A stretch of 64,000 bases of DNA from Vampirovibrionales bacterium (GCA_025449835.1 JANWIO010000052.1:183-64182), one strand, 5' to 3'. Positions 2,723 through 19,996 are shown, counted from the stretch's first letter. The notes: generated by a model from the letters alone, not told the origin. A program made the numbers and translations.

Positions 2723-3811
2723 TTAGCCTGTTGGCAATTTTATATTTATTCCGAGATTCGCTAAGAACTGCTGAAAATCTTGAAGGAATGTCTGTGGCGA
2801 ATTAGTACCGGTATTAACATTATCTGCTCCACCGGCCAATAAGTTGGCAAAAGGATTATCTCCAGACCAACTTTGGAATTCAAGAGGGCTAACGTTGCTA
2901 TTTACAGGCGAAGTGGGTGGATTGCTGGTAGGACTGGCTGAAGAGGAGACTGTTCCACTTGAATTACCATCATTATTGGCTACACTACTATCCAGTTTAA
3001 CAGGGGGTAGTGTGCCTAGTATGGGGGGAGGATCGTTGTCAGAAGATTTTACACCTAAGGGCCCCGGATCACTTCCGCCAGTCCAAACGACCTCAATAGG
3101 GGGTGTGAATCCGGTAGGAGGAATAGGATTGCTTCCTCCTACCTGTATAGGTGCACCTACGGGGTCACGATCCCCGTCTGAGTCTTCAGAATCAGATGGC
3201 TGAGACACTACGGTTGAACTTGTACTCGATGTCGTTGGGGCAGTGTCCGAACTTACATTTGGTGAAGGAGCCGGGACAGTAACCGATGTTGTTGACGTCG
3301 TTGAAGTATCTGTTGAGCTGCTGCTATCTGTTGATGGCGCTGTAGAGCTAGAGCTACTCGTTGTAGAACTGCTCTCTGTTGATGGGGCTGTAGAGCTAGA
3401 GCTACTCGTTGAAGAACTGCTATCTGTTGATGACGGTGTAGAGCTAGAGCTACTCGTTGAAGCACTGCTATCTGTTGATGACGGTGTAGAGCTAGAGCTA
3501 CTCGTTGAAGGCTGAACTGATTTATCATCATCGTCATTATCATTATCTTTACGGGAAATATTGGCTTGAATGGAGAGAAGGCCATTCTGATTGGCATGAT
3601 TTAAAGCGTTTTGTAAACCCCAATTTTGACGATCCCCATCTTTATCTGTTTTAGAATCCGGTTTTTTACTGGAAGAAGGTGGCGTTTGGGGTTGTATGGA
3701 AGACTTTGAACCACCATCATGTTTTTCGTGAGAATCTTTTTTCTTATGATTATCCCAGTTCGCATGTAAGTTTACGTGACTATCAAGTCCTCTTCCACCA
3801 ATTCGTGTCAT
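2723..3811 (-). CDS. Ser/Thr-rich mucin-like repeat protein (362 aa) with an internal 16-aa tandem repeat
   Basis: Long ORF with a strong RBS (AAGGAGAGATTCC before the ATG at 3811); repetitive block STPSSTDSSASTSSSS x about 4; acidic DNDDDDK stretch; no obvious signal peptide. Confidence 0.6.
   Translation of the reverse strand: MTRIGGRGLDSHVNLHANWDNHKKKDSHEKHDGGSKSSIQPQTPPSSSKKPDSKTDKDGDRQNWGLQNALNHANQNGLLSIQANISRKDNDNDDDDKSVQPSTSSSSSTPSSTDSSASTSSSSSTPSSTDSSSSTSSSSSTAPSTESSSTTSSSSSTAPSTDSSSSTDTSTTSTTSVTVPAPSPNVSSDTAPTTSSTSSTVVSQPSDSEDSDGDRDPVGAPIQVGGSNPIPPTGFTPPIEVVWTGGSDPGPLGVKSSDNDPPPILGTLPPVKLDSSVANNDGNSSGTVSSSASPTSNPPTSPVNSNVSPLEFQSWSGDNPFANLLAGGADNVNTGTNSPQTFLQDFQQFLANLGINIKLPTG
3321..3512. 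repeat. 48-nt tandem repeat, about 4 copies, coding (inside the 2723..3811 CDS)
   Basis: Unit ctgctatctgttgatgRcgStgtagagctagagctactcgttgWagMa recurs at 3321, 3369, 3417 and 3465. Confidence 0.8.
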
Positions 3812-4005: not shown

Positions 4006-4050
4006 AGTGGCCCCAGTAGGATTCGAACCTACAACCAAGCGATTATGAGT
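4006..4050. repeat. 45-bp direct repeat (attR-like): duplicate of the 3' part of tRNA-Met at 18961..19005
   Basis: agtggccccagtaggattcgaacctacaaccaagcgattatgagt is identical at 4006-4050 and 18961-19005; the copy at 4006 lacks the 5' half of the tRNA. Confidence 0.85.
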
Positions 4051-4511
4051 AACCCAGAGAATGAATCTGATTGATTCTATAAGGTTCTATGACATGCTCT
4101 ATTCTTAAATCATAGCGATGACGGTGCTTCTAGGAATTTCCATAAATCTCGGACAAATTCGATGTTTTTCCATGCTCGATTACACAAGAATTACACAAGG
4201 ATTTTAGTCCTAAGAGTGCTAAGTACATTAGGGTAAGTAGGATTCTTGAGAGTTTTTTCCTATACTCGTAATTTGATCATCTTGAGTTAATCCCAAGAAT
4301 GGCAGGTTAACATGACCTCTGAGGCTAGACTCTTGAATCCGTATAAGTTCAATTAGATTACTGGGGCTCAGTTTTTCGAGATTAAACATTAACAGCCTCT
4401 TCATTTATAGAAGTGGGTTTAACAAGTTCATTCGATTAGGTGAGTTCGGCTAATACAGACCTTGGGACATTAAATCTGTGGAAAGCCTTGAATCATGTCA
4501 TTTGTCGAAGG

Positions 4512-4554
4512 AATCGACATAAATGTTCTATATGTCGATTTTTTTTATTTTTTT
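4512..4554 (+). terminator. hairpin plus T-tract at the island edge (terminator-like on the + strand)
   Basis: aatcgacata (4512-4521) pairs with tatgtcgatt (4531-4540), followed by ttttttttattttttt; a third copy of tcgacata lies at 4553-4560. Confidence 0.35.
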
Positions 4555-4561
4555 CGACATA

Positions 4562-5662
4562 TCATCCCCGAAGAACCTCTACCAGGCCTTTGTTTATGTA
4601 GTATATTTCTCGACCGATCTTAAATGGCTCCAAGAGACCTATTTGACTAATCTTTTGGAGATATTCAGAGGCTGTCTGCCTTTTAGCAATACCGTCTTGG
4701 ACTAAAAAATTTATCTTACAGTATGGATGTTTGAAAAGTAGCTCTAATAGCTCTCTACTATAGATAGATGGAAGCTGGTCACGGATCAGCCGCTTAGTTT
4801 GCTCCATCAGGGCAACAATCTCTTGCACTTTAGCGAGTGTTTCCGCAGCAGTTTCTTCGACGGCCTTTAAGATATAAAGTGTCCATTCTTCCCAAGCATT
4901 TTCTTCCGTAATAGAACGTAAACCTTGATAGTATCGTGTCTTATTCTCAATAATGTAACGGCTTAAGTAGAGAATGGGCCAATCTAGAAGGTTTTGGTCA
5001 ACTAAATATAAGATGTTTAGGATTCTACCTGTTCGTCCGTTTCCATCGGGAAAAGGATGTATGGCTTCGAACTGATAGTGTCCAATAGCCATTTTGACCA
5101 AGGGATCCCAGTCCAGGTGGGGTTCATCATTAAAGAAACTTTCTAGATTGGCTAATTTGTCTCGTATAACGGCTTCTCCCTCTGGTGGGGTATAGATAAT
5201 ATTACCTGTAACAGGATTGGCAATTTTGGTACCTGGTAGTTTTCGAATATCAAAGTTAGGGCCTTTTATTTCTTGAGCAATTTCAACAAATAAACGAGTA
5301 CTGAAGGGTGTACCATTCTCAAGCTGTTTAAACCCATACCAAATAGCCTCTCGATAACTAATAACTTCTTTTGTCGCAGGATCCATTTGGATTGTCGGAT
5401 CAGAAGCGGCTTTAAATAAGTCATCTTGTGTTGTTACAATATTTTCAATCTCAGATGATAGCCGGGCCTCTTGTAAAATCAAGGCATCAATCATTAATCT
5501 TGGATTAGGGACTTGAGCTAAGCGCCCTTTTAACTCAGCCAACCGGCTCCTTGAGCGAATAATCTGTTTCAAAATAGCCACTGTTTCAAAATCCACAGAG
5601 GGGGGTAATAAGGGCAAATCATTATAAGGTAGGTTTGGGTCGTGATTATTCATAATTTCCAA
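4562..5662 (-). CDS. Fic/DOC family protein (probable auto-inhibited class II AMPylator) with a C-terminal winged-helix-like region
   Basis: Canonical Fic motif HPFPDGNGRTGR; N-terminal inhibitory-type motif SSEIEN ([ST]xxxE[GN]) at about residue 69-74; Fic_N-like start LPYNDLPLLPP. Confidence 0.85.
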   Translation of the reverse strand: MEIMNNHDPNLPYNDLPLLPPSVDFETVAILKQIIRSRSRLAELKGRLAQVPNPRLMIDALILQEARLSSEIENIVTTQDDLFKAASDPTIQMDPATKEVISYREAIWYGFKQLENGTPFSTRLFVEIAQEIKGPNFDIRKLPGTKIANPVTGNIIYTPPEGEAVIRDKLANLESFFNDEPHLDWDPLVKMAIGHYQFEAIHPFPDGNGRTGRILNILYLVDQNLLDWPILYLSRYIIENKTRYYQGLRSITEENAWEEWTLYILKAVEETAAETLAKVQEIVALMEQTKRLIRDQLPSIYSRELLELLFKHPYCKINFLVQDGIAKRQTASEYLQKISQIGLLEPFKIGREIYYINKGLVEVLRG

Positions 5663-5729
5663 CCTTATTTTTATTCTGCCAGCTTAGCAGATTTTTTCTT
5701 GAAGAATGTGATACTTCTCATCGTTATAC

Positions 5730-8700
5730 TTATTCCCCAAGCTCTGCGGCTGTTAGTGCGGCTGCCTGTTCGAGAACCGTCTGAGTCGCTGACTCCTGTT
5801 TGTCAGGAGGGTAGTTGTATTTTCGGAGTATCCGCCTGACCATAACCCGTAACTTTGCTTGAACGCTTTCTTTCTTGGTCCAGTCAATGGTGGCATTCCG
5901 TCGAACCGTATCCACCAAGTCTCTGGCAATTGCTTTAAGCGTTTCATCTCCAAGCTCCATGACGGCACTATCATTGACCTCAAGAGCCTCATAAAAAGCA
6001 GCTTCATCTTCCGCAAGCCCTAGCTCTTCCCCTCGTTCTTGTGCCTTTTTGAAATCCTTGGCCATATCCACCAGTTCTTGGATTACTTGGGCAGTTTCAA
6101 TCTGCTTGGCATAATATCGCTTGATGGCATCATCTAGCATTTCTGAGAACTTCTTGGCTTGAACCACATTCTTTTTGGAGCGAGTTTTTATGGCGTCTGT
6201 CAGAAGCTTTCGTAGGAGTTCGAAGGCAAGGTTCTTTTTCTCAATACCTTGCACTTCCGCAAGGAACTCATCCGACAGAATGGAAATATCCGGTGTTTTG
6301 AGCCCAGCCGCTGAAAAAATATCCACAATTTCGGTGGAAGAAACAGCCTTAGAAACAATCTGCTGAAGTGCTGTATCCAATTGCTCAAGCGTCTTACCTG
6401 ACCCAGTGGTACTTTTTGCGAAGGCAGCTCGGATCGTTTGGAAAAGTCCAACTTCGTCTCTAATCTCGATGGCTTCATCTGTAGTAGCAGCCAGAGCAAA
6501 AGCATGGGATAGTTCCAAGACAGCCTGCATGTATCTCTGCTTTCCGTCATCTAGGCCAAGAATATGCTCCATGGCCTCTGTAATGGTTGTTAAACGCTCT
6601 GTAGGTGAACCAGTTAAACCTTTACCATAATCATATCCACTGAGTAGGTTTCGGGTCAGTTCCACCTTCTCCAACATGACCGCTATGGCTTCTTCAATTG
6701 GGATACCAGCCTCTCGTCGATCACCTTCGGTATAATCCATCAAGGCTTTTTTGAGTAGATCGGCAATAGCGATATAATCCACCACTAAACCGCCTTGCTT
6801 ATCCTTGAAGACACGATTCACACGAGCAATGGCCTGCATCAGATTATGCCCCTTCATAGGTTTGTCAACATACATGGTATGCAGACACGGCGCATCAAAG
6901 CCGGTCAACCACATGTCCCTTACAATAACCAGTTTTAAAGGGTCACTTGGGTCTTTTAACCGCTTTGCTATAGGGTCCCGCTTATCCTTGCTTCTTCTAC
7001 CATGGAGCTGCCAGTTTTCTGGGTCTGATGAAGAACCTGTCATAATGACCTTGATTTTACCTTTGGTGTCATCCTCACTATGCCAATCGGGACGTAGGGC
7101 AGTGATGGCTTCATATAACGCAACGCAAATCCGGCGGCTCATTCCCACAATCATTCCCTTACCCGCCATGGCGGCTATACGTTCTTCAAAATGAGTCACA
7201 ATATCCTGAGCGACTAGCTTAATACGATTTTCTGCCCCCACCAGTGCTTCAATACGAGACCACTTGGATTTTTCTTTTTCAACGCGGCTCAGCTCCTCTC
7301 CTTCGGTAACCTCTTCAAAATCCTCATCCAGATATTTCTTTACTTCTTCATCAATACCAATTTTGACCAGACGGCTCTCATAAAAGATTCGAACAGTTGA
7401 GCCGTCTTCCACAGCCCTTTGAATATCGTAGATATCAATGTAATCTCCAAAAATAGCAGGGGTATTCTTGTCTATTGCCTCCACCGGAGTTCCGGTGAAA
7501 CCAATAAAGGAAGCGTTCGGCAGGGCCTGTCGAAGCATTGCAGCAAAACCTACCGATTTTTTGCCGGTTTTCTGATCAATCTTCGTTTTAAATCCGTACT
7601 GGCTCCGATGGGCTTCATCGGCAATGACCACAATATTTGAACGGTCTGAAAGCAGTGGAAATACTTCTTCTCCTTCAGAGAGGGCAAACTTCTGGATGGT
7701 GGTAAAAATTACCCCACCGGAGCCAGTTTGTAAAAGTTTTCGCAGATCATCACGATCACCAGCTTGGACAGGCTTTTGCCTCAAAAGATCACGACAGTGA
7801 CCAAAAGTACCAAACAATTGATCATCCAGATCATTCCGGTCAGTCAGAACCACCAACGTTGGGTTTTTCATGGCTGGGTGTTGGATAATCTTACCAGCAT
7901 AAAAAACCATGGTAAGACTCTTACCAGAGCCTTGTGTATGCCAAACAACCCCAGCTTTATGCTCTCCACGTGTGGCCTCGATGGAACTATCAACAGCCTT
8001 GTTAACTGCATGATATTGGTGGTACCCAGCGATTTTTTTGATGATTTGCTTACCGTCATCTTCAAACACCGTGAAATGTCGAAGCATATCCAGAAACACT
8101 CGCTGATTGAAGACGCCCTTGATAAGAGTTTCAAGCTCTGGAAGGCCTTTAGAGGTAATAGTACTGCCATCAATGGTTCGCCATGGCATAAACCTCTCAA
8201 AATCAGCCGAGAGCGTTCCCATCCGTGCCTCGATACCATCTGAAATAACCATCACCCCATTGGTGCTGAACAGCGAAGGAATGTCATTTTTGTAATTTTG
8301 AAGCTGGGTAAAGGCTTTATCTATAGTGGCGTTTTCATCCCCGACATTTTTGAGTTCAATGACAGCAACAGGTAGACCATTCAAGAAAATAACCACATCC
8401 GGGCGTCTGTTTTTACCACCTTGCTCCACCGTAAATTGGTTGACAGCTAGCCAATCGTTATTTTCAGGATGTTCAAAATCTACGGGATAAACCGGCACAT
8501 AATGCGTTGAGCCGTCTGTCCGTCGTTTCTCTACCGGAATTCCATTAACCAACAATTGATAGAATGCCCGGTTGGTTTCAAACAAACTAGGAAGGTCCAA
8601 CCGGTTGAGTTGGCGAATGGCTTCCTCGATCATATCTGACGAAACACCGGGATTGATGGTTCCCATGGAACGCCTTAAGCGAGTTGCTAAGAGCGTCTCT

Positions 8701-8825
8701 TGATAATCCCCTCGCTCGGCCCACATTTCCTCTGGGGCAATCGTTGGCCCAAAAACAACCTCATACCCTAGGGAATTTAACCACTCAAGACAGGCTTCTT
8801 CAACACAGCTTTCAGAGAAATTCAT
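5730..8825 (-). CDS. hsdR: type I restriction enzyme R subunit (HsdR)
   Basis: 1031 aa; Walker A GSGKSLTM; DEAH box [12 protein letters not shown]; HsdR N-terminal nuclease region; SF2 helicase motifs. Confidence 0.9.
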
Positions 8826-9773
8826 CTAATTTTGTACTGGTCGCTTGGCATCCACATCAAAAAGCTCTTGGTTAATAATAGACTCAACCCGTCCATTAGT
8901 GAAAAAGTGTAAAATGAGTTCAACTTTTTCTGCTGTCATAATTAATAGACCGTCATCATCATATTCTAATCCCAGGTTTCTCTCTTCATTAGCTTGCCGA
9001 AGGCTTATAAGAAACTCACTGTCTCTGTAATAACCCAACTCTTTAACTTTGGCAATCTTTCTCAACAAGCGCAAATTATTCCCAATGTGTAATTCTAATC
9101 CATCGGTACTTTGAAACACATTTAATTGTTCGAACTCGGCAATCACATCATGCTTATCTTGTATCATACCTTCTCGGAAATTGAGATCTAGTTCAAAATT
9201 ATTCTTATAAAAAATAAAAATCGTTCCTGCATAACTAAAGAAGTCGAAATAATCATCTATTTTGAATATAGCTTTATCTTCAAGAACGAGTTCCATATGA
9301 GAAGAGAAAATCAGGTTTATTGCACCCAAATTTTTCTTTGTTGCCCAACCTTTTGGTGCTCTCCTAACAGCAAATAAAGGTAATTGATTGGGCAAATAGA
9401 GTCGTGTGACGTAGAACCAGGCATCAAAGAGCTGATTTTGGGAGTTCGCAATTTCCGGGGGGTCAATACCAGTGATAGTATCCACAATGGATTGGAAATC
9501 TGTTTCGCTTGTTGTAATGGTTAGCAGATTGTCATCTTGATCAACGGTGTTGAAATCATATTCCATAACACCCTGTGCAGAGGAGAGGCGTCTCTGAAAT
9601 ACCGCTTGAAGATTTTGTTGGATATTCTCTCCAATATTTACAAGAAGAACCTCGTAATGTGCGGACTTCTTGACTAAGCGACGTTTAACAACATAGAAGG
9701 ATACTGATGAATTCAGCCAATTTAAAGCCTTAATATTAGCGAGTGTTGGTGATACTTGGGGCATCAACCCCAT
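8826..9773 (-). CDS. hypothetical soluble protein (315 aa) embedded in the R-M operon; candidate KwaB-like (DUF4868?) defence component
   Basis: Stop codon abuts the hsdR start (8825/8826); no catalytic motif recognised; the size and the partnership with the upstream multi-TM protein match the Kiwa architecture. Confidence 0.45.
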   Translation of the reverse strand: MGLMPQVSPTLANIKALNWLNSSVSFYVVKRRLVKKSAHYEVLLVNIGENIQQNLQAVFQRRLSSAQGVMEYDFNTVDQDDNLLTITTSETDFQSIVDTITGIDPPEIANSQNQLFDAWFYVTRLYLPNQLPLFAVRRAPKGWATKKNLGAINLIFSSHMELVLEDKAIFKIDDYFDFFSYAGTIFIFYKNNFELDLNFREGMIQDKHDVIAEFEQLNVFQSTDGLELHIGNNLRLLRKIAKVKELGYYRDSEFLISLRQANEERNLGLEYDDDGLLIMTAEKVELILHFFTNGRVESIINQELFDVDAKRPVQN

Positions 9774-10314
9774 TCCTTTCTGTTACGAGAAACAACCGTT
9801 CGGACAATTCCACAATTCGACAAGACTCATTTTTGCCCAGTCGAGTACCTTTTACAAGAAAAAAATCTTCAAAATCATGCCCATCGCGTTTGTAATGCAC
9901 GTCATAGATGTTGTATCCCATTATGGCCAGAATAGGATTGATAAAAATGTTATGAGTCTTCAGTGTCATCCAATACATGATGACCATAAAGAATGCAAAG
10001 CTCAGCAATAGCTTTATATCAGAGAGATTCAACACGAAAAAAGAAACCATATAGGGGATACTGTAATTAATCAGTTCCCCAGAGCGATTGGAGACTGAAA
10101 CAATTGTAATCGGAGGGGTAGATACTTTCATAAAGTGGACAGAAGCCCATATCACCAGACAACTGAGAGCTGCAAGTGCGAAGATGCTCAAAACCACCCA
10201 AGGGCTCGAGAACCAATGCGTTTTTGAGTCATAATCCTGTATCAGAAAGATGATTGAGAGCGGTGAATAGGCACTGATAAAGATAAGAATGGATGAGAGA
10301 AGTCGCAGCTTCAT
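9736..10314 (-). CDS. small multi-pass membrane protein (192 aa, 4-5 predicted TM helices); candidate KwaA-like defence component
   Basis: Hydrophobic segments LSSILIFISAYSPLSIIFLI, VVLSIFALAALSCLVIWA, SIPYMVSFFVLNL, LLLSFAFFMVIMYWMTL, INPILAIMGYNIY; ATGA overlap with the hsdS stop (10311-10314). Confidence 0.45.
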   Translation of the reverse strand: MKLRLLSSILIFISAYSPLSIIFLIQDYDSKTHWFSSPWVVLSIFALAALSCLVIWASVHFMKVSTPPITIVSVSNRSGELINYSIPYMVSFFVLNLSDIKLLLSFAFFMVIMYWMTLKTHNIFINPILAIMGYNIYDVHYKRDGHDFEDFFLVKGTRLGKNESCRIVELSERLFLVTERNGVDAPSITNTR

Positions 10315-11558
10315 ACAGCAGCCTCCACCAAGACTTCCGCTTCCCGAATTCTAATTTCGCCGCACATTAGCCTGGGGAGGAGCGTATCTCGAATTTTTGA
10401 GAGGTTTTGATTTTCTTCAAGTAAAGCTTCCATTTTTGCTCTAATCGGGCGTACAATCTTTTCGAATTCAATTAACGTAGCAGAGGGTGGTAAGATTGCC
10501 CTTAATTTGGGTATATTCTTCACATTAAGGGCTTCTAAAATTGTCCCCGTATCAATGTTTAAATACATTTCAGAATGATATGTATCCGAAAAGAAGTATT
10601 GGATCAAAAAAGTTGGATAAGGATAATCATTTTTAATTCGAATACCTGTCATATTTCTACCCAACGCAGCTTTTAAATTTGGTGGAATTTGAGCGACAGC
10701 ACCCACGCGACCTACGTTAGTAATGACACAATCACCTTGAGAAGCCTCTATTCTGGAAATCCACTTTTCATACTCCTCATTTGATATCCAAAATATTTTT
10801 GACATATCAAGTAGACCATTATCTTTTATATTGTTGAGCTGAAGTAAGGGTTTTCCTTCATTTTGATACTCGGGTTTTTTAGTATGAAGGCAGTCAATAA
10901 TGTCACAAAAACTACCTAGCTCCCAAACTTCCCAACCTTTTGGAATCTCTCCCAGTTCGCTCTCTTCAAATCCATCTGGAAACAAGGCAGCAATCTCTTG
11001 AGCCAAGCCCTGTGGTTGACGACCTTCGGCTTTGGCTCGCACGGGATCAAAATCGACAAACCAGCTTTTAAACAGCGCCCGGGCAATGCCCTCCAGCGTC
11101 TCATTCATCTTCCGGTTCAGTTCGATTTTATCGTCGAGGGCAGAGAGAACTTCAGCGATAGATTCTCTTTCACCTGACTCCGGAACTCTTACTTCAATAG
11201 AATTTAAAATACTTTGATTTAAAAGTGGCTGTCCAGACCCGGTTCTGTAATCATTTAGATTTAAGCTAGAAAGTAAGTAATACCAGTATTTAGATTGTTT
11301 TAAAGATGGAGTAATGCAAGCAATGGCATTATCAGTAACCCAGCACTTTTTAGCTGAATATTGAGTACTCCCACAATAAGAGCCAACACGACCTATAATT
11401 ATTGTACCTTCATCGGCATTTACGGAGTTAGCTTGGCCAATTACTCCATTAGAGCCAAAAACATTATAAATCCCATTTGAAGAACGATCTGGGGAGGTTT
11501 TACCATTCTTAAAATTGAGTTCTTTTTCTAATCTTATGGTTTTCCATTCACCATCCAT
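10311..11558 (-). CDS. hsdS: type I R-M specificity subunit (HsdS), two target-recognition domains
   Basis: 415 aa; bipartite architecture with the conserved central and C-terminal coiled spacer ([12 protein letters not shown]... / [16 protein letters not shown]); overlaps the hsdM end. Confidence 0.85.
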
Positions 11559-13230
11559 AGCCCACTCTCCCTAACTGGTGTTTCAGGTTTTGAGCCATGG
11601 TGTCACTTTCAGCCGTTTGTTTCTTCAAGGTTTGGGTAAGTCGGGTCATCTTCTCGGAGAAAGGCTCGTCGTCCTCTTGCGCCTCAGCAGTGCCTACATA
11701 TCGGCCCGGTGTTAGCACATAATCATGGTGGCGTATTTCATCCAAAGTGGCACTTTTGCAAAAGCCGGAAATGTCTCGATAACAACCGTCAGGGAATTCA
11801 GTTTTGCATGAGTTATTTTGTTCATCAAGGTGATAAGGATCTTTGAGGGGTTCACCTCGCCAGGAATGGTAAGCATCGGCAATTTTGTAAATGTCCGCTT
11901 TGCTGAGATTCCTATGAACACGGTCTTCCAGATAGCCCAGTTTCCGAGCATCAATGAATAGAATTTCTCCTCGACGATCCCGGAGCTTGGCTTCCCCATT
12001 ATATGGATACTTGATCAGCCCATTGCTACGGTCTTTAGCTAAAAACCACAAGCACACCGGAATTTGCGTTGTATAGAATAATTGTCCTGGGAGAGCCACC
12101 ATACAATCAACCAGATTCTCTTCAATCAAGTTCTTACGAATCTCGCCTTCTCCGCTGGTGTTTGAACTCATTGAGCCATTAGCCAGCACAAATCCGGCAT
12201 ATCCTCTTGGTCCGAGATGAGACACCATGTGCTGTACCCATGCCATGTTGGCATTGCCTACAGGAGGGATACCAAATTTCCAGCGAGCATCCTCCCGTAA
12301 ATGCTGACCACCCCAATCACTGATGTTAAATGGCGGATTAGCAAGAATGAAATCTGCAAAGATATCTTTGTGGAGGTCATTGTGGAAGCTATCGGCATTC
12401 TGTTTACCAAGATCGGCATCGATACCCCGAATGGCTAGATTCATCTTACACAAACGCCAGGTAGTGGGGTTGCTTTCCTGACCATAAATAGAAATATCTT
12501 TTGTGTAACCACCGTGGACTTGAATAAATTTCTCGGATTGCACAAACATACCGCCGGAACCGCAGCAAGGGTCATATACACGGCCTTTGTAAGGCTCTAG
12601 CATTTCAACCAAAACTTGAACTACTGAAGGTGGCGTGTAGAATTCTCCACCACCTTTACCCTCAGCACTGGCAAAACGTCCCAGAAAGTATTCATAAACC
12701 CGGCCCAAAATATCCTGTTTGGGTTTATTTTTCTTGTCTTTGTCTTCCAACTGGGGATCTTGCTCCTTTTGAGCAATTAATTCCAGATTACTGATGAGAT
12801 CAATAAGTTCACCTAAACGCTGTTTGTCGAGTGTAGGACGGTTATAGTCCTTGGGTAAAACGCCCTTTAAAGAAACATTCTCTCGCTCAATAGCCACCAT
12901 GGCATCATCTACAAGTTTCCCGATTTCCGGCAGCTTAGCTTTCTCTAATAAGGATTGCCATCGAGCCTCTTTTGGAACCCAAAAGACATTTTCTGCAAGA
13001 TATTCATCCCGATGTTCCGGGTCTGCACCTTCGGCTTCCTGTGCCTTTAGCTTTTGATATTGCTCATCAAATGCGTCGGAGATGTACTTCAGGAAGATCA
13101 AGCCCAAGGCCACATGCTTGTATTCGGCTGGATCCATGTGGCCACGCATCTTGTCTGCCGTCAGCCAAAGCTGCTGCTCGAACCCAAGCATAGCGGTTTT
13201 ATTCTGTTTGGATGTTTTACTAGGAGGCAT
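11548..13230 (-). CDS. hsdM: type I R-M N6-adenine DNA methyltransferase subunit (HsdM)
   Basis: HsdM N-terminal domain ([14 protein letters not shown]...); SAM-binding site [12 protein letters not shown]; catalytic NPPF ([13 protein letters not shown]). Confidence 0.9.
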
Positions 13231-13321
13231 AGTTCACTCTCTTCTTAACATTCATCGGTTTTGTGATTCAACGCTATTTTATGACAAAAAAACGATCCTA
13301 TCATTTTTATGTGCAAGAGCC

Positions 13322-14608
13322 TTATTGTTGCATAACAGAATTGTCTTTCAGGTGTTTCCGATGCAACCAAACCATCATTCTTGTTTGTCGAGTTAAGGAT
13401 AGATGCTGTGTTTGCTGCATGAACTGGTTTAAAGGTTTCACCATGGCCAGTGCTTTTATAGCCCCACGCTCCAACATGTTGACAGGAATGGGATAACCTA
13501 AAACCTCTTTTACCGAATCCTGGACTAATCGTTGACAGTAGTCTACTGATACTGGTAATCCTCTTTTGATTGCGTAAGTGGAGGTAAATAAAAAAGGGTA
13601 GTTTGTTTGCTTTTGACGTGTTTTCAAGAATCTTAGCCATAGGGAAGCAAGCCATTGTGACGAAAGATCAATACAAAACACCCGTTCAGACCTCCCTAAA
13701 CGAGTTGGTTTTTGCTCTTGATAGGATAAAATGGCCTTTTCTTTATCATTTAACTCGATTAAAGGCAATGCCTTTAAAGGTAGTCCATAACCCATGATGA
13801 GAATTAGCATCAATGAAACGGTTAAAGAGAGTTTGTTTTGTTCAATAGCTTGCCATAGTTGGTTAATTTCGTCCTGAGTTGCTGAATAACTTATTCCTAA
13901 AGACTGATGGGACCTAATCGTAAAGTTTGGAACAGAGAAAGAACCATCTAGGGATTTGTAGTAGTGAAATAAAGGCTTTAGATTGGAGAGGATACGCTTT
14001 TTTGAGATTGGTTTGGAGTGAGGATATACATTCATCAGGTAAGTTTGGAGTTCCAAATGGGTAACGGCTTTTAAAGATGTAACTCCGCTTTCTTTCATCC
14101 AAATTTGAAAATGTTTTAATCCCAAAATACAGTCATAAACGCTACGGGAGGAGAACATATTTTCAAGTAGCCAATCGATATAATTACTGACAAAGCCTTG
14201 CTCTAAAGCTGAGAACCCTTGGACAATCCGCCACGTTTTTACCCACTGTCTTTTTTCAATAGGGGTAGCTTCACCATGGCCATGGCGACAAAAGAGTAAA
14301 TATAACCAACTGAGATCATACTGGATCTGCTTGCCGGGTATCTGTGGGCAGGCATGTCTCAAATAGACCTCTGCCTCGGCTAAACTTTTTGGGTTTGGAA
14401 TTTTGGGAATTTGAGCAAGGTCACCCAGCGCAATTAAAGTCTTAGTATGCTTGATATCGTAAGTGGTCAACCCTGACTCATGAGAAATAAACTCATATAC
14501 TGTCAATAATAAGGTTTTGTTCTGAATCCTTTGTGATGGAAACAATACCTCAATTCCATACCTTAAGCGTTCGAAATAATCCACCAAGTAATCGGGTAGC
14601 CGTTCCAT
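13322..14608 (-). CDS. phage-integrase-family-like protein, divergent (core-binding-like N region; catalytic R/H/R/Y not all evident)
   Basis: 428 aa; the segment LELQTYLMNVYPHSKPISKKRILSNLKPLFHYY resembles tyrosine-recombinase core-binding domains; lies in a same-strand array with the bona fide recombinase upstream. Confidence 0.4.
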   Translation of the reverse strand: MERLPDYLVDYFERLRYGIEVLFPSQRIQNKTLLLTVYEFISHESGLTTYDIKHTKTLIALGDLAQIPKIPNPKSLAEAEVYLRHACPQIPGKQIQYDLSWLYLLFCRHGHGEATPIEKRQWVKTWRIVQGFSALEQGFVSNYIDWLLENMFSSRSVYDCILGLKHFQIWMKESGVTSLKAVTHLELQTYLMNVYPHSKPISKKRILSNLKPLFHYYKSLDGSFSVPNFTIRSHQSLGISYSATQDEINQLWQAIEQNKLSLTVSLMLILIMGYGLPLKALPLIELNDKEKAILSYQEQKPTRLGRSERVFCIDLSSQWLASLWLRFLKTRQKQTNYPFLFTSTYAIKRGLPVSVDYCQRLVQDSVKEVLGYPIPVNMLERGAIKALAMVKPLNQFMQQTQHLSLTRQTRMMVWLHRKHLKDNSVMQQ

Positions 14609-14928
14609 TACAAGTACCTCAGTGGGTCATCGAAGATGATAGCTGGATTATCAGGAACCTTACGAAACGGATGGATAATTTTACCACCTTGTCGGCCATG
14701 GTGACTCGGTGTCACCTGAAGATAGGTGCTTAAAGGTAATTGTAATAAATCACACAAGATTTGCGCCGTTTGTAATTTGAGCTCATGAGGTTGTTTGGAT
14801 AAGAGCTTTCTTAAAGCCTGTGGACTAATTGATATTCCCAATTCTGCCTTTAGGGCCTCATGCAGTTGATTGCCGTTGGCGATACCTTTGGCTTCCAGAC
14901 AATCTTTTAAGCGCCATATCAAGGGCAT
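14608..14928 (-). CDS. small protein (106 aa), possible HTH DNA-binding, between the two recombinase-family genes
   Basis: The segment GNQLHEALKAELGISISPQALRKLL is HTH-like; start and stop are tightly packed against the neighbours. Confidence 0.35.
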   Translation of the reverse strand: MPLIWRLKDCLEAKGIANGNQLHEALKAELGISISPQALRKLLSKQPHELKLQTAQILCDLLQLPLSTYLQVTPSHHGRQGGKIIHPFRKVPDNPAIIFDDPLRYL

Positions 14929-14931
14929 TAA

Positions 14932-16011
14932 TCAGCACCCCAATGGGTATAACGGCAATAGATTTGATGGGGTCTTATCCTTGGAATAACCCAAGTAATG
15001 AGAAGCCGTTGATACAAAACTCCATCCAGTTATAAGCATTAGGCTTTTGATATCTCCACCTTGTTCTAAGTAGAGTGTTGCAAATGTCCTACGAAGGGCA
15101 TGCCAACCAAACCCTGAAAAAATGCTAATATCAAAGTCTGATTCTTGAATCTCTCTCAGCAATTGCCTCATCCATTGCCCGGCGGTATGAGTGCTTAATC
15201 TTTCCCCTTTTACGCTTTGGAAAAGAGGAGCTTTCCGTTCCCGAGGAAACTGTCTCAAAAAATTTTGCAGGGTTGCTTTTGCCAATGGGGATATTGGAAC
15301 TTCTCGCTTACGATAACCTGAGCCACAATTCCCTTTACCTCGGACAACCAGGCAAACGTTATCTAAAAGATTCAAGTATTGTATTTCAAGTCCAAGGATT
15401 TCATTGAGTCTTAATCCCATCTCCCCACCAATAACGCACATTAAATGGATTTGGCAGGCCTTCAATAATTCATATCCTTTGAGATTAGAGTTAATACGAC
15501 TCCATGTGTAACGCAAAAAACGCTTGTATTCGGTGGCGGTTAAATAATTACTGTTGGATTTCTGTTCATGGCTTTTTTTAGGGATAGTATAGCGATTCAC
15601 AGGTGATTGAATCGGACCATAAATGGAAGGCAGGTAAAGCGATTTTTGGCCTGTAACATGGATTGTCAGATTTTCTTGTAAAAAAATGCAATAACGTTCA
15701 ATGGCTTTAAGACAGGCGGTTGCTCTTGTTTTTGGAGAAATATCCCGATAACAGGATTCGACGATTTTAGAAGCCAATAGCGGGTTTCCAATATCAAAGG
15801 TATCCACGGGACGTTGAATACTTGGAATTTTTTCATCATTGATTTGTACTTGCTGAAAAACATCATTCAATCGACGAAATTGTTGTTCTCGATATCGCTT
15901 GGTTAGGTTGCGATGATAGAAGCTCGCTTCGTATGCGCTTAAAGCCAGTTGATGGTGTAAAGGACGATCAACCTGATAAACATCTGGTGTGGTTTGAACA
16001 GAACTTATCAT
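14932..16011 (-). CDS. tyrosine site-specific recombinase (XerC/D-like)
   Basis: Catalytic signature GLRLNE (R), VRGKGN (K), GWHALRRTFAT (HxxR), GWSFVSTASHYL (Y). Confidence 0.8.
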   Translation of the reverse strand: MISSVQTTPDVYQVDRPLHHQLALSAYEASFYHRNLTKRYREQQFRRLNDVFQQVQINDEKIPSIQRPVDTFDIGNPLLASKIVESCYRDISPKTRATACLKAIERYCIFLQENLTIHVTGQKSLYLPSIYGPIQSPVNRYTIPKKSHEQKSNSNYLTATEYKRFLRYTWSRINSNLKGYELLKACQIHLMCVIGGEMGLRLNEILGLEIQYLNLLDNVCLVVRGKGNCGSGYRKREVPISPLAKATLQNFLRQFPRERKAPLFQSVKGERLSTHTAGQWMRQLLREIQESDFDISIFSGFGWHALRRTFATLYLEQGGDIKSLMLITGWSFVSTASHYLGYSKDKTPSNLLPLYPLGC

Positions 16012-16191
16012 TGCTTTATCTCATTATGGAAACTGAAGGTTTCTTTATCTATGGCAACCCATGGTTTCTCAAGGTTCAGAAACTAACAGAACAGAACTTC
16101 TTGCTTTTAGGCAACTGATGGATTTTGAGTAGAAGCCACAGAATTTTGTTGTAGTCTTTAATCTACTTGAGCAGGTAGCTTTTTGTTGTGG

Positions 16192-16563
16192 TTATTGGGA
16201 CCCCTTGATTTGTCGTCTTATTAGTGTGTTGGTTCTTAGGTTATTTTCAATCCAGAGATTTAAATCGCTCATCCGATAGCGAACATTCCTTCCTAGTTTG
16301 ACGAACTTTGGCCCATCACCCCGCATTCGACCTTGACGCAGCCAAGCGCACGAGCAACTTAAGACTATTGCAGCCTCTTTTTCGTTTAAAAGCTTCTCGT
16401 CAGTACCCGTATTAGGCGGTACTTCATCTGGTTTTACTGAGGGCTTCTCAACCTTTTCAGGTTTTGAGTAACTCTTTATCGCAGATTCCAGATCAGACAA
16501 TGCCATTTTCAGGTATTTTTCTAGGCTTTTGAGCAGAAAAAGCTTTTCTTCGTTTTCAAGCAT
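16192..16563 (-). CDS. AlpA/HTH_17-like DNA-binding protein (123 aa), excisionase/regulator candidate
   Basis: C-terminus AAIVLSCSCAWLRQGRMRGDGPKFVKLGRNVRYRMSDLNLWIE fits the AlpA-type winged HTH. Confidence 0.5.
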   Translation of the reverse strand: MLENEEKLFLLKSLEKYLKMALSDLESAIKSYSKPEKVEKPSVKPDEVPPNTGTDEKLLNEKEAAIVLSCSCAWLRQGRMRGDGPKFVKLGRNVRYRMSDLNLWIENNLRTNTLIRRQIKGSQ

Positions 16564-16789
16564 TGTTCAGCCCCCTGGATTGAGCTGTACTCGTGGCTTT
16601 ACCCTTAGCGTTAAGCCATTTATCTAGATCCTCTCGATAATAAAAAATCCTTCCTCGCTTAATAAATTCTGGCCCAGTACCCTGACATCTCATCATTGCT
16701 AGAGTCTTTTCAGATAATCCTAGGTAGGACGCAGCATTTTTAGTATCTAAACGGCCATCTGGAAATGTTGATATGCTTATGGAGTCCAT
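16556..16789 (-). CDS. AlpA-family excisionase/transcriptional regulator candidate (77 aa)
   Basis: AASYLGLSEKTLAMMRCQGTGPEFIKRGRIFYYREDLDKWL is the AlpA/Xis-like HTH; overlaps the downstream paralogue by 8 nt. Confidence 0.55.
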   Translation of the reverse strand: MDSISISTFPDGRLDTKNAASYLGLSEKTLAMMRCQGTGPEFIKRGRIFYYREDLDKWLNAKGKATSTAQSRGLNNA

Positions 16790-16911
16790 ATATACGCCTC
16801 TCTGCCAATTAATACATAAATATAGAGAATAAAGTAATTATTTAGAATACAATAAACTAGTTATTGACAGATTGCAATATTTAGGGAGAAAATAGAACTT
16901 GATAGAACTAG

Positions 16912-17709
16912 ATGGAGAAAGCAATGCCTCGAAAGCCATTGAAAGAGGGACAACCCAAGGTTGAAGCCCTGACGATGCGAATTAGCCCCAAAATGAAATT
17001 TGGGCTTGATCTCCTTTGTAGAAAGCAACACCGAAATCTTACCTCTGTGATGGAGTGGGCTCTAGAGAAAGCTTTAAAAGATATCAATGATGGATTGGCA
17101 ATGGAAATCGAGACATTAGATGGGCGTACAAAGCTTGTTCCAGCTCTGGATAGGCTTTGGCACACTGAAGAATGTGGAAGACTTGCCAATATAGCATTCT
17201 ATTGGCCAAGTTTGCTAACCTATGAAGAAGACTATATATGGCAAATTATCTCTAAAAATGCCTACTATTGGCGGGTTAGGGAATACGAATCTGAGATAAA
17301 TTCCCAAAAACGCAACAGTTTAACCTGGGCTCCAATTCCAGGATTGCTTCTGATTGATAAGGTTAGACAGGATTGGCCAATCCTAAAAAAAATTCGTGAT
17401 GAGCAAAGTGATCCGCTTATACTACCTTATTTTGTCCCTGGGGAACAACCAGAGCCACCAGAGTGGTTCTCAATCGAGAAAAATACAATTCCAAGCAATT
17501 TGCTAAACAAGCTGGATATCGTAAAAGTTAAGATTTTCCCCTCTCAGGATACTCAAGAAATGAAGTATAAACATGAACACAATAACCAAATCAAAACTCT
17601 TATAGAAACTTTGGAATTAAAACTTGGGAATACGACAGAAGCAGAGGAGCTTATTGAGGAAATTACTGAACGTCTTGAGCAATCTCCCCCATATTATTAT
17701 CGATACTAA
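16912..17709 (+). CDS. hypothetical island protein (265 aa), possible N-terminal ribbon-helix-helix
   Basis: ORF immediately upstream of the integrase on the same strand; no recognised domain. Confidence 0.45.
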   Translation: MEKAMPRKPLKEGQPKVEALTMRISPKMKFGLDLLCRKQHRNLTSVMEWALEKALKDINDGLAMEIETLDGRTKLVPALDRLWHTEECGRLANIAFYWPSLLTYEEDYIWQIISKNAYYWRVREYESEINSQKRNSLTWAPIPGLLLIDKVRQDWPILKKIRDEQSDPLILPYFVPGEQPEPPEWFSIEKNTIPSNLLNKLDIVKVKIFPSQDTQEMKYKHEHNNQIKTLIETLELKLGNTTEAEELIEEITERLEQSPPYYYRY

Positions 17710-17724
17710 AGAGACTTTATACTT

Positions 17725-19023
17725 ATGTCCCAAAAATTTACGAAACTGACCCGAATCAATCTCCGAAAGCTGCAACCCGGCCAGCGGTTAAATGAACATG
17801 GCATTATTTTTGAGCGCCTTGCAGATGGAGATGGTCGGTACAGCATTAACATAATGGTTGATGGGGTGCGGATCCACCGGTCTGTAGGCAAGGAGTCCGA
17901 GGGAGTAACACTGACACAGGCACAGGAATTGGTCGAAAAACTAAAAACGGATGCCAGAATGGGGCGGTTAAACCTACCCAAGAACAGAAAAACCTATTTA
18001 AGATTTGAGGAAGCTGCCAACAAGTATCTTGCAAAGCTTGGAGAAGAAGCGGGCAAAGATATCCCTCGGAAAAAGCAGCGTCTAGATCTTTATTTGATAC
18101 CCTTTTTCAAAGGTAAACCTCTGGATAAGATTACCAATTTTGACGTTGAACGGTATAAAAAGGTTCGCATTGATGCCAAGGCATCCAATGGAACCATTAA
18201 CAGGGAGTTGTCCACCTTATCACATCTTCTCAATAAGGCGATGGAATGGGGTTGGATTCATCATAGACCCTGTCAGATAAGGCGCCTAAAAGAGAACAGA
18301 GGTCGGATTGAATGGCTGACCAAAGAAGAGGTACAGAAGCTCCTGAAAGCAGCGAAAGTGGATGATTTCCCTTATGTTTACCCATTTATAGTCATTGCAC
18401 TTGAAACAGCGATGCGACGCATGGAGATTCTTTCTATTGAGATCGAGAATATCAATTTTGAGAAGCGGACGATCTATATCCCCAAAGCAAAAGCCGGAGC
18501 GAGAGAGGCATATATCAGTGAAAACCTTGAGAAATTCTTGAAAAATTACATTGAGCAAACAGTCAAACCTGGACAAAAATGGTTGTTCCCTACAGCAAAT
18601 CAAAAATTGTCTTCTACCGGACATCTGATGAATATCGAAAGACCATTTCGGCGTGTTGTTAAAACTGCCGGACTGGATGCTGCTAAAGTGGTACGTCATA
18701 CATTAAGGCATACCGCCATCAGTCACTTAGTACAAGCAGGGATTGATCTTCCAACGGTAAAGAGAATCTCCGGGCACAAAACGTTGCAAATGGTGGAGCG
18801 ATACAGCCACCAAAATCAGGAGCATATTCAGTTCGCATTAAAACGGCTGGACGATCGCTATCCGATCTTTGATGAAAGCAGCAGTCCAGATTACACCAAA
18901 ATTACACAAAACAAAAAAAATAAGCCTTCAAAGAAACAGCGAAAACCCTTATCTAAGAAGAGTGGCCCCAGTAGGATTCGAACCTACAACCAAGCGATTA
19001 TGAGTCGCCTGCTCCACCATTGA
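17725..19023 (+). CDS. int: P4-type tyrosine integrase (DUF4102/arm-binding N-terminus), 3' end overlapping tRNA-Met
   Basis: 432 aa; N-terminus LTRINLRKLQPGQRLNEHGI... arm-type; catalytic region RHTLRHTAISHLVQAGIDLPTVKRISGHKTLQMVERYSH (HxxR...Y). Confidence 0.9.
   Translation: MSQKFTKLTRINLRKLQPGQRLNEHGIIFERLADGDGRYSINIMVDGVRIHRSVGKESEGVTLTQAQELVEKLKTDARMGRLNLPKNRKTYLRFEEAANKYLAKLGEEAGKDIPRKKQRLDLYLIPFFKGKPLDKITNFDVERYKKVRIDAKASNGTINRELSTLSHLLNKAMEWGWIHHRPCQIRRLKENRGRIEWLTKEEVQKLLKAAKVDDFPYVYPFIVIALETAMRRMEILSIEIENINFEKRTIYIPKAKAGAREAYISENLEKFLKNYIEQTVKPGQKWLFPTANQKLSSTGHLMNIERPFRRVVKTAGLDAAKVVRHTLRHTAISHLVQAGIDLPTVKRISGHKTLQMVERYSHQNQEHIQFALKRLDDRYPIFDESSSPDYTKITQNKKNKPSKKQRKPLSKKSGPSRIRTYNQAIMSRLLHH
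18961..19005. repeat. 45-bp direct repeat (attL-like) within the intact tRNA-Met
   Basis: Identical to 4006-4050. Confidence 0.85.
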
Positions 19024-19034
19024 GCTATAGGGCC
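18963..19034 (-). tRNA. tRNA-Met (anticodon CAT; could also be initiator or the lysidine-modified Ile2 type)
   Basis: The reverse complement GGCCCTATAGCTCAATGGTGGAGCAGGCGACTCATAATCGCTTGGTTGTAGGTTCGAATCCTACTGGGGCCA folds as a cloverleaf with anticodon loop CTCATAA and T-loop GGTTCGAATCC. Confidence 0.85.
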
Positions 19035-19150: not shown

Positions 19151-19996
19151 TTAACTGGTTTTAGAAAGGCTGTAGGCCAGAGCCCTTCGTAACACAATCA
19201 GTTCATCCTCACTAGCCAATGTCGCCGGAAACGTGAGGCTTGTATAGGTTTTATCTAGATACTGAGAAATAAATGTGTCTATTTTTTCTGTTTGGCAAGG
19301 CGCCTGAGATAATGGGTTTATCAAACACATCCGTAAAAGCCCCACCAAATCTTTTCGAGAGGGCACATTACATAAAGGGGTCTCAATTGTCTCAATCTCG
19401 ATAGGGAAAAGGTTTTCCGAAATCACCTCATAAAACTGTTTTGAATGGCACGCTTGATGAATTTCCTGGTTTACCAAGGCTTCATCCAAACGTCCTTCAG
19501 CAAATTGATAACTGATCCCAATCCGAGCCATTAAAGCTGAAGACTTATTCAGCACAATCACCAGTGACCCCTCAGGCTTTAATAGTGACACCGCAAGCTT
19601 AATTTTATTTTGAATATCTTCCAGACCCTTAAAATGGTAAAGCATATGGGACATCGTAATGAGGTGAAATCCCTCTGGAAAATCCTGCTGAATTTTTTTA
19701 CAGGCAAATGGCTCCCACCGATAAGGGTAAACCCTCTCAAATTGTTGTTTTAAAGCAGCAACACAGCGTGGGTTTGGTTCCAACACCACCAAGTTGTCCG
19801 TGTAATCCCGCATTAATGAGGGCAAATGCCCCTGTCCTGCCCCAATATCTAAAACCGAAAACCCTGGCCGTTTGGTTTCAGGTAAAAGCCCTTTGAGATG
19901 TAGCTTTGAAACGGTTTCATTATTTTGCAAGGAGTATTGATGAAAAAGCCCCAATGCTTCCTCAAAAACGTCTGTGTCTAAAGCCATCTTATCCAT
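19151..19996 (-). CDS. class I SAM-dependent methyltransferase
   Basis: Motif I VLDIGAGQGHL; overall Methyltransf_11/12-like architecture. Confidence 0.65.
   Translation of the reverse strand: MDKMALDTDVFEEALGLFHQYSLQNNETVSKLHLKGLLPETKRPGFSVLDIGAGQGHLPSLMRDYTDNLVVLEPNPRCVAALKQQFERVYPYRWEPFACKKIQQDFPEGFHLITMSHMLYHFKGLEDIQNKIKLAVSLLKPEGSLVIVLNKSSALMARIGISYQFAEGRLDEALVNQEIHQACHSKQFYEVISENLFPIEIETIETPLCNVPSRKDLVGLLRMCLINPLSQAPCQTEKIDTFISQYLDKTYTSLTFPATLASEDELIVLRRALAYSLSKTS

Follow-up and report, generated by a model that had tools for sequence, protein, structure and literature searches.

Genomic islands integrated at tRNA genes carry their history at their ends, where the regenerated target and a displaced fragment of it mark the two limits of the element (Islander; PMC4383910), and attachment (att) sites that begin at the anticodon loop and reach the tRNA 3' end have been described (bioRxiv 10.1101/2020.11.02.365908). 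Defence genes are also documented within type I restriction-modification (R-M) operons, as is the case for TgvAB in Vibrio pathogenicity island 2 (VPI-2) of Vibrio cholerae (PMC11411939) and for PrrC and many others found embedded in such operons (bioRxiv 10.1101/2024.01.29.577857). The subject of this work is a 64-kb stretch of DNA from a Vampirovibrionales bacterium (GCA_025449835.1, JANWIO010000052.1:183-64182), called the window below, in which positions 4006-19005 very probably represent an integrative defence island inserted by its own tyrosine integrase into a tRNA-Ile2(CAU) gene.

An earlier note on this DNA had proposed that an integrative defence island, flanked by att sites, occupies a tRNA gene and has its integrase beside the full tRNA. 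The direct repeat, the arm-type sites and a set of homologous elements all agree with that proposal.

The att repeat and its target gene

The ends of the island are defined by three features:

4006..4050, no strand assigned: attL, the distal att core, an incomplete tRNA (exact 45-bp repeat; no tRNA called)
18961..19005, no strand assigned: attR, the int-proximal att core, within the regenerated tRNA (exact 45-bp repeat)
18962..19034, minus strand: complete tRNA-Ile2 (anticodon CAU, ileX-like), the integration target (ARAGORN and Rfam; comparison with E. coli)

Two exact copies of the 45-bp sequence AGTGGCCCCAGTAGGATTCGAACCTACAACCAAGCGATTATGAGT, and no more, are present in the window (4006-4050 and 18961-19005). 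Chance is expected to give 0 matches even with up to three mismatches tolerated (<=3), and the similarity lengthens to 51 nucleotides (nt) at 96% identity. With only these two copies present, the exact duplication of the tRNA 3' part at both ends, noticed earlier, is upheld. The same is true of the statement that only the right-hand copy is a full tRNA, since the one complete tRNA called by ARAGORN and Rfam (minus strand, 18962/3-19034; anticodon CAT) lies at that copy and the left copy receives no call. On the strand of the tRNA, the repeat has the final base pair of the anticodon stem as its first position, includes the entire anticodon loop (CTCATAA), and ends one base past the tRNA 3' end called by ARAGORN. 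The segment between the repeats measures 14.9 kb, and the whole island about 15 kb. Its composition is distinct from the remainder of the window, with a GC content of 41.7% against 43.9-45.6% in windows of the same size outside the island, and a tetranucleotide distance of 0.0132 from the other parts of the window (maximum for same-size windows outside, 0.0071).

The target had originally been taken for a tRNA-Met. Its closest match in a survey of 5,426 E. coli genomes is a tRNA beside mug, annotated by PGAP as 'tRNA-Ile', with 85-87% identity across 96% of the length; the anticodon arm GGCGACTCATAATCGCT is identical in the two tRNAs, and the acceptor stem starts GGCCC. On the basis of these three features, the target is, by sequence comparison, a tRNA-Ile2 (CAU) of the ileX type, and the tRNA-Met label was dropped. 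The tRNA-Ile2 gene is usually single-copy and essential, and an element that inserts into it therefore has to restore the gene that the insertion splits.

A near-identical tRNA(CAT) is present in two Vampirovibrionales/cyanobacterial metagenome-assembled genomes (MAGs), L002 and L003, the copy in L003 being identical and that in L002 differing by one substitution at the 3' end. In both MAGs it adjoins tRNA-Gly(GCC), tig, clpP, and clpX. This conserved tRNA(CAT)-tRNA-Gly-tig order indicates that the right flank of the island is chromosomal and identifies the host lineage, which is, as judged from these genes, a Vampirovibrionales-like bacterium.

The integrase, its candidate arm-type sites and accessory genes

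The putative integration module comprises the following features:

17725..19023, plus strand: tyrosine integrase of 432 amino acids (aa) (Phage_integrase E 1.1e-30; homologues; catalytic motifs)
18890..18909 (sites 18890/18901), plus strand: candidate arm-type doublet ATTACACCA-AA-ATTACACAA, 52 nt before the attR core
4179..4198 (sites 4179/4190), plus strand: candidate arm-type doublet ATTACACAA-GA-ATTACACAA, 129 nt inside the attL core
16912..17709, plus strand: protein of 265 aa, encoded upstream of int (no match in Pfam, PHROG or PADLOC)
16556..16789, minus strand: 77-aa HTH_17 protein, excisionase/AlpA-like (HTH_17 E 4.6e-9)
16192..16563, minus strand: second HTH_17 protein, 123 aa (HTH_17 E 1.1e-4, below cut-off; PHROG 'excisionase and transcriptional regulator')

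The integrase open reading frame (ORF) converges on tRNA-Ile2 from the opposite strand and overlaps it by 62 nt, in accordance with the earlier description of a tyrosine integrase that reads into the tRNA. The catalytic blocks MRRME, KAKAG, HTLRHTA, and GHK...RYSH (R, K, HxxR, H, and Y) are all present and are invariant in the family alignment. On the evidence of sequence matches this family, of about 380 aa, is widespread, with records from several phyla: 1,926 proteins were found at E<=1e-10 among the candidates tested, homologues 60-65% identical to the window integrase are almost all 378-382 aa long, and the few named records belong to Nitrospina, Gammaproteobacteria, and Ignavibacteriaceae. 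About 90 additional N-terminal residues precede the core-binding and catalytic domains, and the nearest solved structures by sequence are XerA and Xer-like proteins.

In its extra N-terminus, in the short direct repeats on both arms of the reconstructed attP, and in the Xis/AlpA-like helix-turn-helix (HTH) gene nearby, the system resembles those of the arm-type integrases lambda Int and P4 Int; in P4, the arm repeats lie inside and beside int. A P4-type assignment, as first given to this integrase, was nevertheless rejected. P4 Int matches Arm-DNA-bind_3 (PF13356) with E 3e-26 and Phage_int_M with E 2e-29, whereas the window integrase reaches the cut-off for neither domain, and BLASTP detected no similarity between the two proteins (best E = 1.7).

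The conserved part of the integrase ends near residue 385, and the stop codon that relatives have shortly after '...RY' is missing from the window copy. A tail of about 47 codons continues through the arm sites, non-coding attP DNA, and the att core to a stop inside the tRNA; in the excised form, as read from the sequence, the stop would lie seven codons past the core instead. P0041, an integrase homologue of 425 aa, has a similar tail. The C-terminal end of the window integrase (tail 18880-19023) reads ...SGPSRIRTYNQAIMSRLLHH and that of P0041 ...GGPCRNRTYDQRIKSPLLYRLS, the latter being, in our reading, the translated complement of a tRNA-Lys-like 3' half. This recurrence suggests that the overlap between integrase and tRNA is a recurring by-product and no special device. 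In the family at large, the usual stop is occasionally absent from integrase ORFs, which then continue via the arm sites and core and translate the complement of the target tRNA.

The motif ATTACAC(M)A has six matches in the window against 1.18 expected, and four of the six form the two doublets at the island ends, which are tandem, have an 11-nt spacing, and share one orientation. They may be considered candidate arm-type sites of a heterobivalent integrase. The arm-type character previously ascribed to the integrase thereby gains support, as candidate doublets occur on both sides of the core and are kept in the homologous elements L013, L015, L018, and L109:

L018, an 11.1-kb island: integrase 62% identical; 63-nt repeat over the same portion of the tRNA; the target is a tRNA-Ile2-like gene; one doublet 129 nt from the left core and a second on the int side, cut off from the tRNA by an IS66 insertion
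L013, Nitrospina watsonii chromosome: doublet 46 nt from the 3' end of a complete tRNA-Arg(TCT)
L015/L016, a phage-like contig: doublet 26 nt past int and about 55 nt short of a partial tRNA-Leu(TAA)-like core, from anticodon loop to CCA
L109, an IMG/VR viral contig: doublet about 50 nt before the core, a partial tRNA-Asn(GTT)-like 3' half

The distance from the int-side doublet to the tRNA-derived sequence is about 45-55 nt in L013, L015/L016, and L109. Arm motif and geometry are thus conserved while the core varies with the target tRNA, which is the behaviour expected of a heterobivalent integrase. These features provide a simple, searchable attP signature, in which an ATTACAC doublet precedes or follows a tRNA 3' half at a distance of about 50 nt, the latter beginning with the anticodon loop; it could help to map islands and prophages in metagenomes.

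Two of these elements deserve mention in their own right. L018 (11190-14190) has an IS66-family transposase gene (12307-13971) between the int-side doublet (12116/12127) and tRNA-Ile2, leaving a gap of about 2 kb between arm and core; the insertion probably disables excision. The integrase module of L013 (1-9300; OX336137.1) lies beside a PLD-SNF2 helicase, a 1361-aa Type ISP-like enzyme, and GmrSD, with an 817-aa SMC/AAA_15-like gene between int and tRNA-Arg. The presence of the module next to this different defence cargo suggests that the integrase family repeatedly carries defence genes.

An arrangement of HTH_17, a gene at the position of the 265-aa protein, and int is conserved in every context read (L013, L015, and L018), with HTH_17 divergently transcribed. 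The 77-aa protein is 56-75% identical to the HTH_17 proteins encoded beside the integrase homologues in these three elements, and the 265-aa protein is homologous to the product of the same-position gene (E 2e-25 to 3e-7; family 185-297 aa). Its conserved N-terminus looks, by eye, like a ribbon-helix-helix domain. The 123-aa HTH_17 protein is a paralogue of the 77-aa one (38% identity), and their genes overlap by 8 nt. A divergent intergenic region of 122 nt (16790-16911), with a promoter-like TTGACA-18-GAAAAT at 16864-16893, separates the 77-aa HTH_17 gene from the operon of the 265-aa protein and int, and is likely the switch region for integration and excision.

From these elements a mechanism can be proposed. 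The circular form of the element would carry attP, in which the core has one doublet at about 52 nt on the int side and another at 129 nt on the opposite side. The integrase, probably via its conserved N-terminal region, would bind the arm sites. Strand exchange by the core-binding and catalytic domains of the enzyme would take place within the anticodon loop or close to it, the proposed position of the crossover. A complete tRNA would be regenerated beside int from the 3' part carried by the island itself, and the original chromosomal 3' part would be left behind at a distance of 14.9 kb, as a fragment. Likely directionality and regulatory factors are the products of the two genes transcribed divergently from the shared intergenic region, the 77-aa HTH_17 protein and the 265-aa protein.

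Defence cargo and a recombinase trio linked to R-M genes

The cargo had been outlined earlier as a type I R-M system, a Fic protein, and recombinase-family and AlpA-like genes, and all of these were recovered by family matches. The defence genes are:

11548..13230, minus strand: hsdM, type I methyltransferase subunit (N6_Mtase E 2e-108; HsdM_N)
10311..11558, minus strand: hsdS, type I specificity subunit (Methylase_S E 1.6e-22)
9736..10314, minus strand: kwaA, Kiwa membrane protein, 192 aa (PADLOC KwaA E 2.5e-46; several hydrophobic segments)
8826..9773, minus strand: kwaB, Kiwa, DUF4868 (PADLOC KwaB E 1.7e-84; Pfam KwaB E 8.8e-21)
5730..8825, minus strand: hsdR, type I restriction subunit, 1031 aa (HSDR_N, SWI2_SNF2, T1R_D3-like, T1RH-like_C)
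4562..5662, minus strand: SoFic-like class II Fic adenylyltransferase (Pfam Fic_N, Fic, SoFic-like_C; PADLOC SoFic E 1.2e-116)

The type I R-M system is complete, HsdR, HsdM, and HsdS all being full length. Between hsdS and hsdR lies what had been described as a candidate accessory defence pair. A defence pair it is, and PADLOC allows it to be named, as KwaA and KwaB of the Kiwa system. KwaA is predicted, from its hydrophobic segments, to be a multi-pass membrane protein. The kwaA gene shares 4 nt with hsdS and 38 nt with kwaB, and the end of kwaB abuts the start codon of hsdR; with all neighbours overlapping or abutting, hsdM-hsdS-kwaA-kwaB-hsdR appear to form one five-gene operon. The Fic protein, already assigned to class II, is SoFic-like and carries both HPFPDGNGRTGR and an N-terminal inhibitory SSEIEN motif (SxxxEN), and it is a candidate single-gene defence system. 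Taken together, the cargo would serve anti-phage defence, the activity being deduced from these family assignments. No transfer (conjugation), replication, or virion genes were recognized among the island genes with family matches, and movement between cells would consequently need a helper. A 58-aa ORF without a family match (4228..4404, minus strand) is uncertain as a real gene.

Upstream of the R-M operon lies a group of three genes, preceded by a pair of short sites:

16025..16068, minus strand: paired 19-nt sites GAAACC-N4-GTTKCCATA, spaced by 25 nt and immediately upstream of the start codon of the trio
14932..16011, minus strand: tyrosine recombinase, 359 aa (Phage_integrase E 6e-16; R, HxxR, W and Y motifs present)
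14608..14928, minus strand: Cro/C1-type HTH protein, 106 aa (HTH_26 weak, E 0.011; orthologue in L100, E 1.5e-7)
13322..14608, minus strand: protein of predicted tyrosine-recombinase fold, 428 aa (no Pfam match; weak Xer matches; structure model)

The earlier mention of two recombinase-family genes stands for the 359-aa protein, with its motifs, and needs qualification for the 428-aa protein, in which the canonical catalytic residues are missing: the family alignment has GYGLPLKAL at the Arg-I position and no C-terminal Tyr. The tyrosine-recombinase fold of this protein is settled by structure prediction, the AlphaFold2 model having a predicted local distance difference test score (pLDDT) of 82.5 and XerA, XerH, IntI (IntI4), and lambda Int as top Foldseek matches; comparison of the family with single recombinase sequences by hhalign yielded a low probability. 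The family is rare, with 10 proteins in a word-indexed search, 24 of 1.84 billion representatives at E<=1e-30, and about 29 representatives at E<=1e-10, and it had no match in plasmids or viral contigs.

The three genes are conserved together, orthologues being 55-57% (359 aa), 42-44% (106 aa), and 40-44% (428 aa) identical. Trio loci and their neighbours are:

window, 13322-16068: type I R-M
L100, 3115-5828: Eco57I-like type IIG enzyme with S subunit
L102, 1742-4468: Eco57I-like type IIG enzyme with S subunit
L101, 434-3153: N6_N4 methyltransferase
L105, 1709-4354: N6_N4 methyltransferase
JGI contig: MmeI-family enzyme

An R-M or methyltransferase gene is thus found directly downstream of the trio in all six loci read (6/6). 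In the window, L100, L101, L102, and L105, the trio is preceded by a pair of 15-19-nt sites exactly 25 nt apart, which differ in sequence from locus to locus and keep this geometry constant. In the window, the pair overlaps promoter-like -35/-10 elements, and the paired sites look like operators. The backbone shared by L100, L102, and L105 consists of HTH_31 divergent from HTH_17, a small ORF, and the trio, with a serine recombinase also in L100; L101 has the C-terminus of an HTH_17 protein and small ORFs upstream of the trio. Homology between L100 and L105 stops right after the trio, at a shared promoter-like sequence. By the look of these gene orders, the trio is present on at least two unrelated mobile backbones.

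Two explanations of the trio were tried and rejected. An hsdS inverton or invertible promoter finds no place here, because hsdS is present once and neither 13000-17000 nor L100-L102 contain convincing inverted repeats. The sites upstream of the trio are not paired recombination sites around the cargo, as each locus has one doublet. Neither flanking repeats nor an invertible segment were found around the trio in the window or in L100-L102. In the features compared, the trio is also unlike a Tn554-like or recombinase-in-trio (RIT) element. Tn554, with TnpA, TnpB, and TnpC, and RIT elements have two or three complete tyrosine recombinases, and the latter are bounded by terminal inverted repeats. 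The window trio is similar to both in its three co-oriented, overlapping genes, which include proteins of tyrosine-recombinase fold, and in the cargo downstream. It differs in the gene order (recombinase, Cro/C1-type HTH, recombinase fold without Arg-I and Tyr), in the absence of terminal repeats, and in its neighbour, which is always an R-M or methyltransferase gene.

Our preferred guess sees the trio as a regulated module of recombinase and regulator, carried along with R-M cargo. That it may be an undescribed module dedicated to R-M, able to control the establishment or exchange of such cargo, is proposed tentatively, as a possibility short of even chances. This rare, R-M-linked trio is the one lead that might be new and represents the real discovery potential of the island.

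Alternative readings and comparison with known systems

Several searches were directed at relatives of the host, an empty site, and the excised form. Exact-protein look-ups with the flanking methyltransferase, rpe, and the integrase matched no record, and a genome scan with trigger factor returned species-level relatives at most 83% identical and none closer. An exact scan of metagenomes for the attB pattern gave 0 matches, an rpe-based metagenome scan reached at most 62% identity, and a scan of viral contigs for the attP junction gave 0 matches. Among the genomic loci recovered, L001 ends at tRNA-Gly, L002 is not syntenic with the window to the left of the tRNA, and L002 and L003 have only the right flank in common with the window; alignment of the post-tRNA sequence to L002 and L003 was informative for a few bases only.

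Some of these results weigh against an integrative defence island, as do certain properties of its genes. The genome and metagenome scans produced no empty site or second strain, the insertion being deduced from structure, and neither an excised circle nor the attP junction was recovered in the viral-contig scan. The N-terminal arm-binding domain proposed for the integrase matches no Pfam model, the tail of about 47 aa is unusual for the family, and a distal-arm doublet was not found in L015. As for the cargo, SoFic scores 473.9 with the NCBIfam model (cut-off 550), and the Kiwa proteins score 68 and 25 against NCBIfam equivalog cut-offs of 100 and 200, so far below that a divergent subtype is suggested. 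Strain variability and present-day mobility would rest on structure, with identical repeats and an intact set of integrase, arm sites, and accessory genes.

The island might also have integrated in the past and now be a fixed, immobile remnant, in which the tail extension or the loss of helper functions ended excision. Such a reading could draw on an integrase that lacks the stop its homologues have about 47 codons earlier, on the transfer, replication, and packaging genes, none of which were recognized among the family matches, and on the circular junction, not found in public viral contigs. It appears rather unlikely, given that the 45-bp repeats are still identical, the two arm doublets are intact, as are the catalytic blocks and the pair of accessory genes, and P0041 demonstrates that a tail into the tRNA recurs in the family. 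Comparable doubt attaches to a composite origin, in which the block of 123-aa HTH_17, trio, and R-M, perhaps with SoFic, would be a module in its own right, driven by a recombinase and possibly a nested mobile element, that the island captured. The recurrence of the trio with downstream R-M genes on a different backbone (L100, L102, L105; L101) and in the JGI contig, and the end of L100/L105 homology just past the trio at the shared promoter-like sequence, would fit such a capture, whereas in the window the block has no flanking repeats and its upstream sites no second copy. Moreover, the 123-aa HTH_17 gene has an 8-nt overlap with the 77-aa gene, to which it is paralogous, and it is no orthologue of the HTH_17 gene of L100; the block was never seen alone at an otherwise empty site.

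A degraded prophage or phage satellite that kept nothing except its integration module and defence cargo is improbable. The integrase family does occur in phage-like contigs, with L015 encoding a tape measure protein and a terminase small subunit and L106-L109 coming from IMG/VR, but no island gene matches capsid, tail, terminase, primase, or replication families, and L013 and L018 are likewise non-phage islands. A local partial duplication of the tRNA, unrelated to any mobile element, would account for the repeat itself and for nothing beyond it. With the integrase adjoining the tRNA, arm doublets at both ends, the same architecture in five other elements, and a composition different from the rest of the window, this idea is effectively refuted. 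The integrative defence island inserted by its own integrase consequently remains by far the most probable reading of 4006-19005.

Two genes in the flanks of the island may be noted. Between tRNA-Ile2 and tRNA-Gly, outside the direct repeats, the window contains a gene for a 281-aa S-adenosylmethionine (SAM)-dependent methyltransferase (19151-19996). The gap between the two tRNAs is just 175 nt in L002 and 402 nt in L003, and the gene was therefore either inserted here or lost there. Just left of the island, a 362-aa ORF (2723-3811) includes a tandem array with a 48-nt (16-codon) period, with repeats at 3264-3503, which was reported as four overlapping 96-nt copies of 60-88% identity to the reference copy. 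It has no Pfam match and may encode a repetitive surface or secreted protein.

Among described systems, Kiwa (PMC11785009) has the same make-up as the window genes, which PADLOC matches strongly: a DUF4868 protein preceded by a small multi-pass membrane protein. The window pair differs in its divergent scores and in being embedded in an R-M operon. Operons of the TgvAB and PrrC type have the same design as the window operon, a tightly packed two-gene defence system between hsdM/hsdS and hsdR, and the embedded system is here Kiwa. Kiwa thereby joins the systems found embedded in type I R-M operons, as a further case of a documented arrangement. The island as a whole is likewise a further member of a well-known kind, the tRNA-integrated genomic island. 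With the tRNA-gene islands of Islander (PMC4383910), it has in common a tyrosine integrase beside the regenerated tRNA, a displaced 3' tRNA fragment as the distal direct repeat, and a cargo of accessory genes. It differs from them in its uncultured Vampirovibrionales host and its tRNA-Ile2(CAU) target, thus adding a cleanly and precisely bounded defence island from the little-studied Vampirovibrionia.

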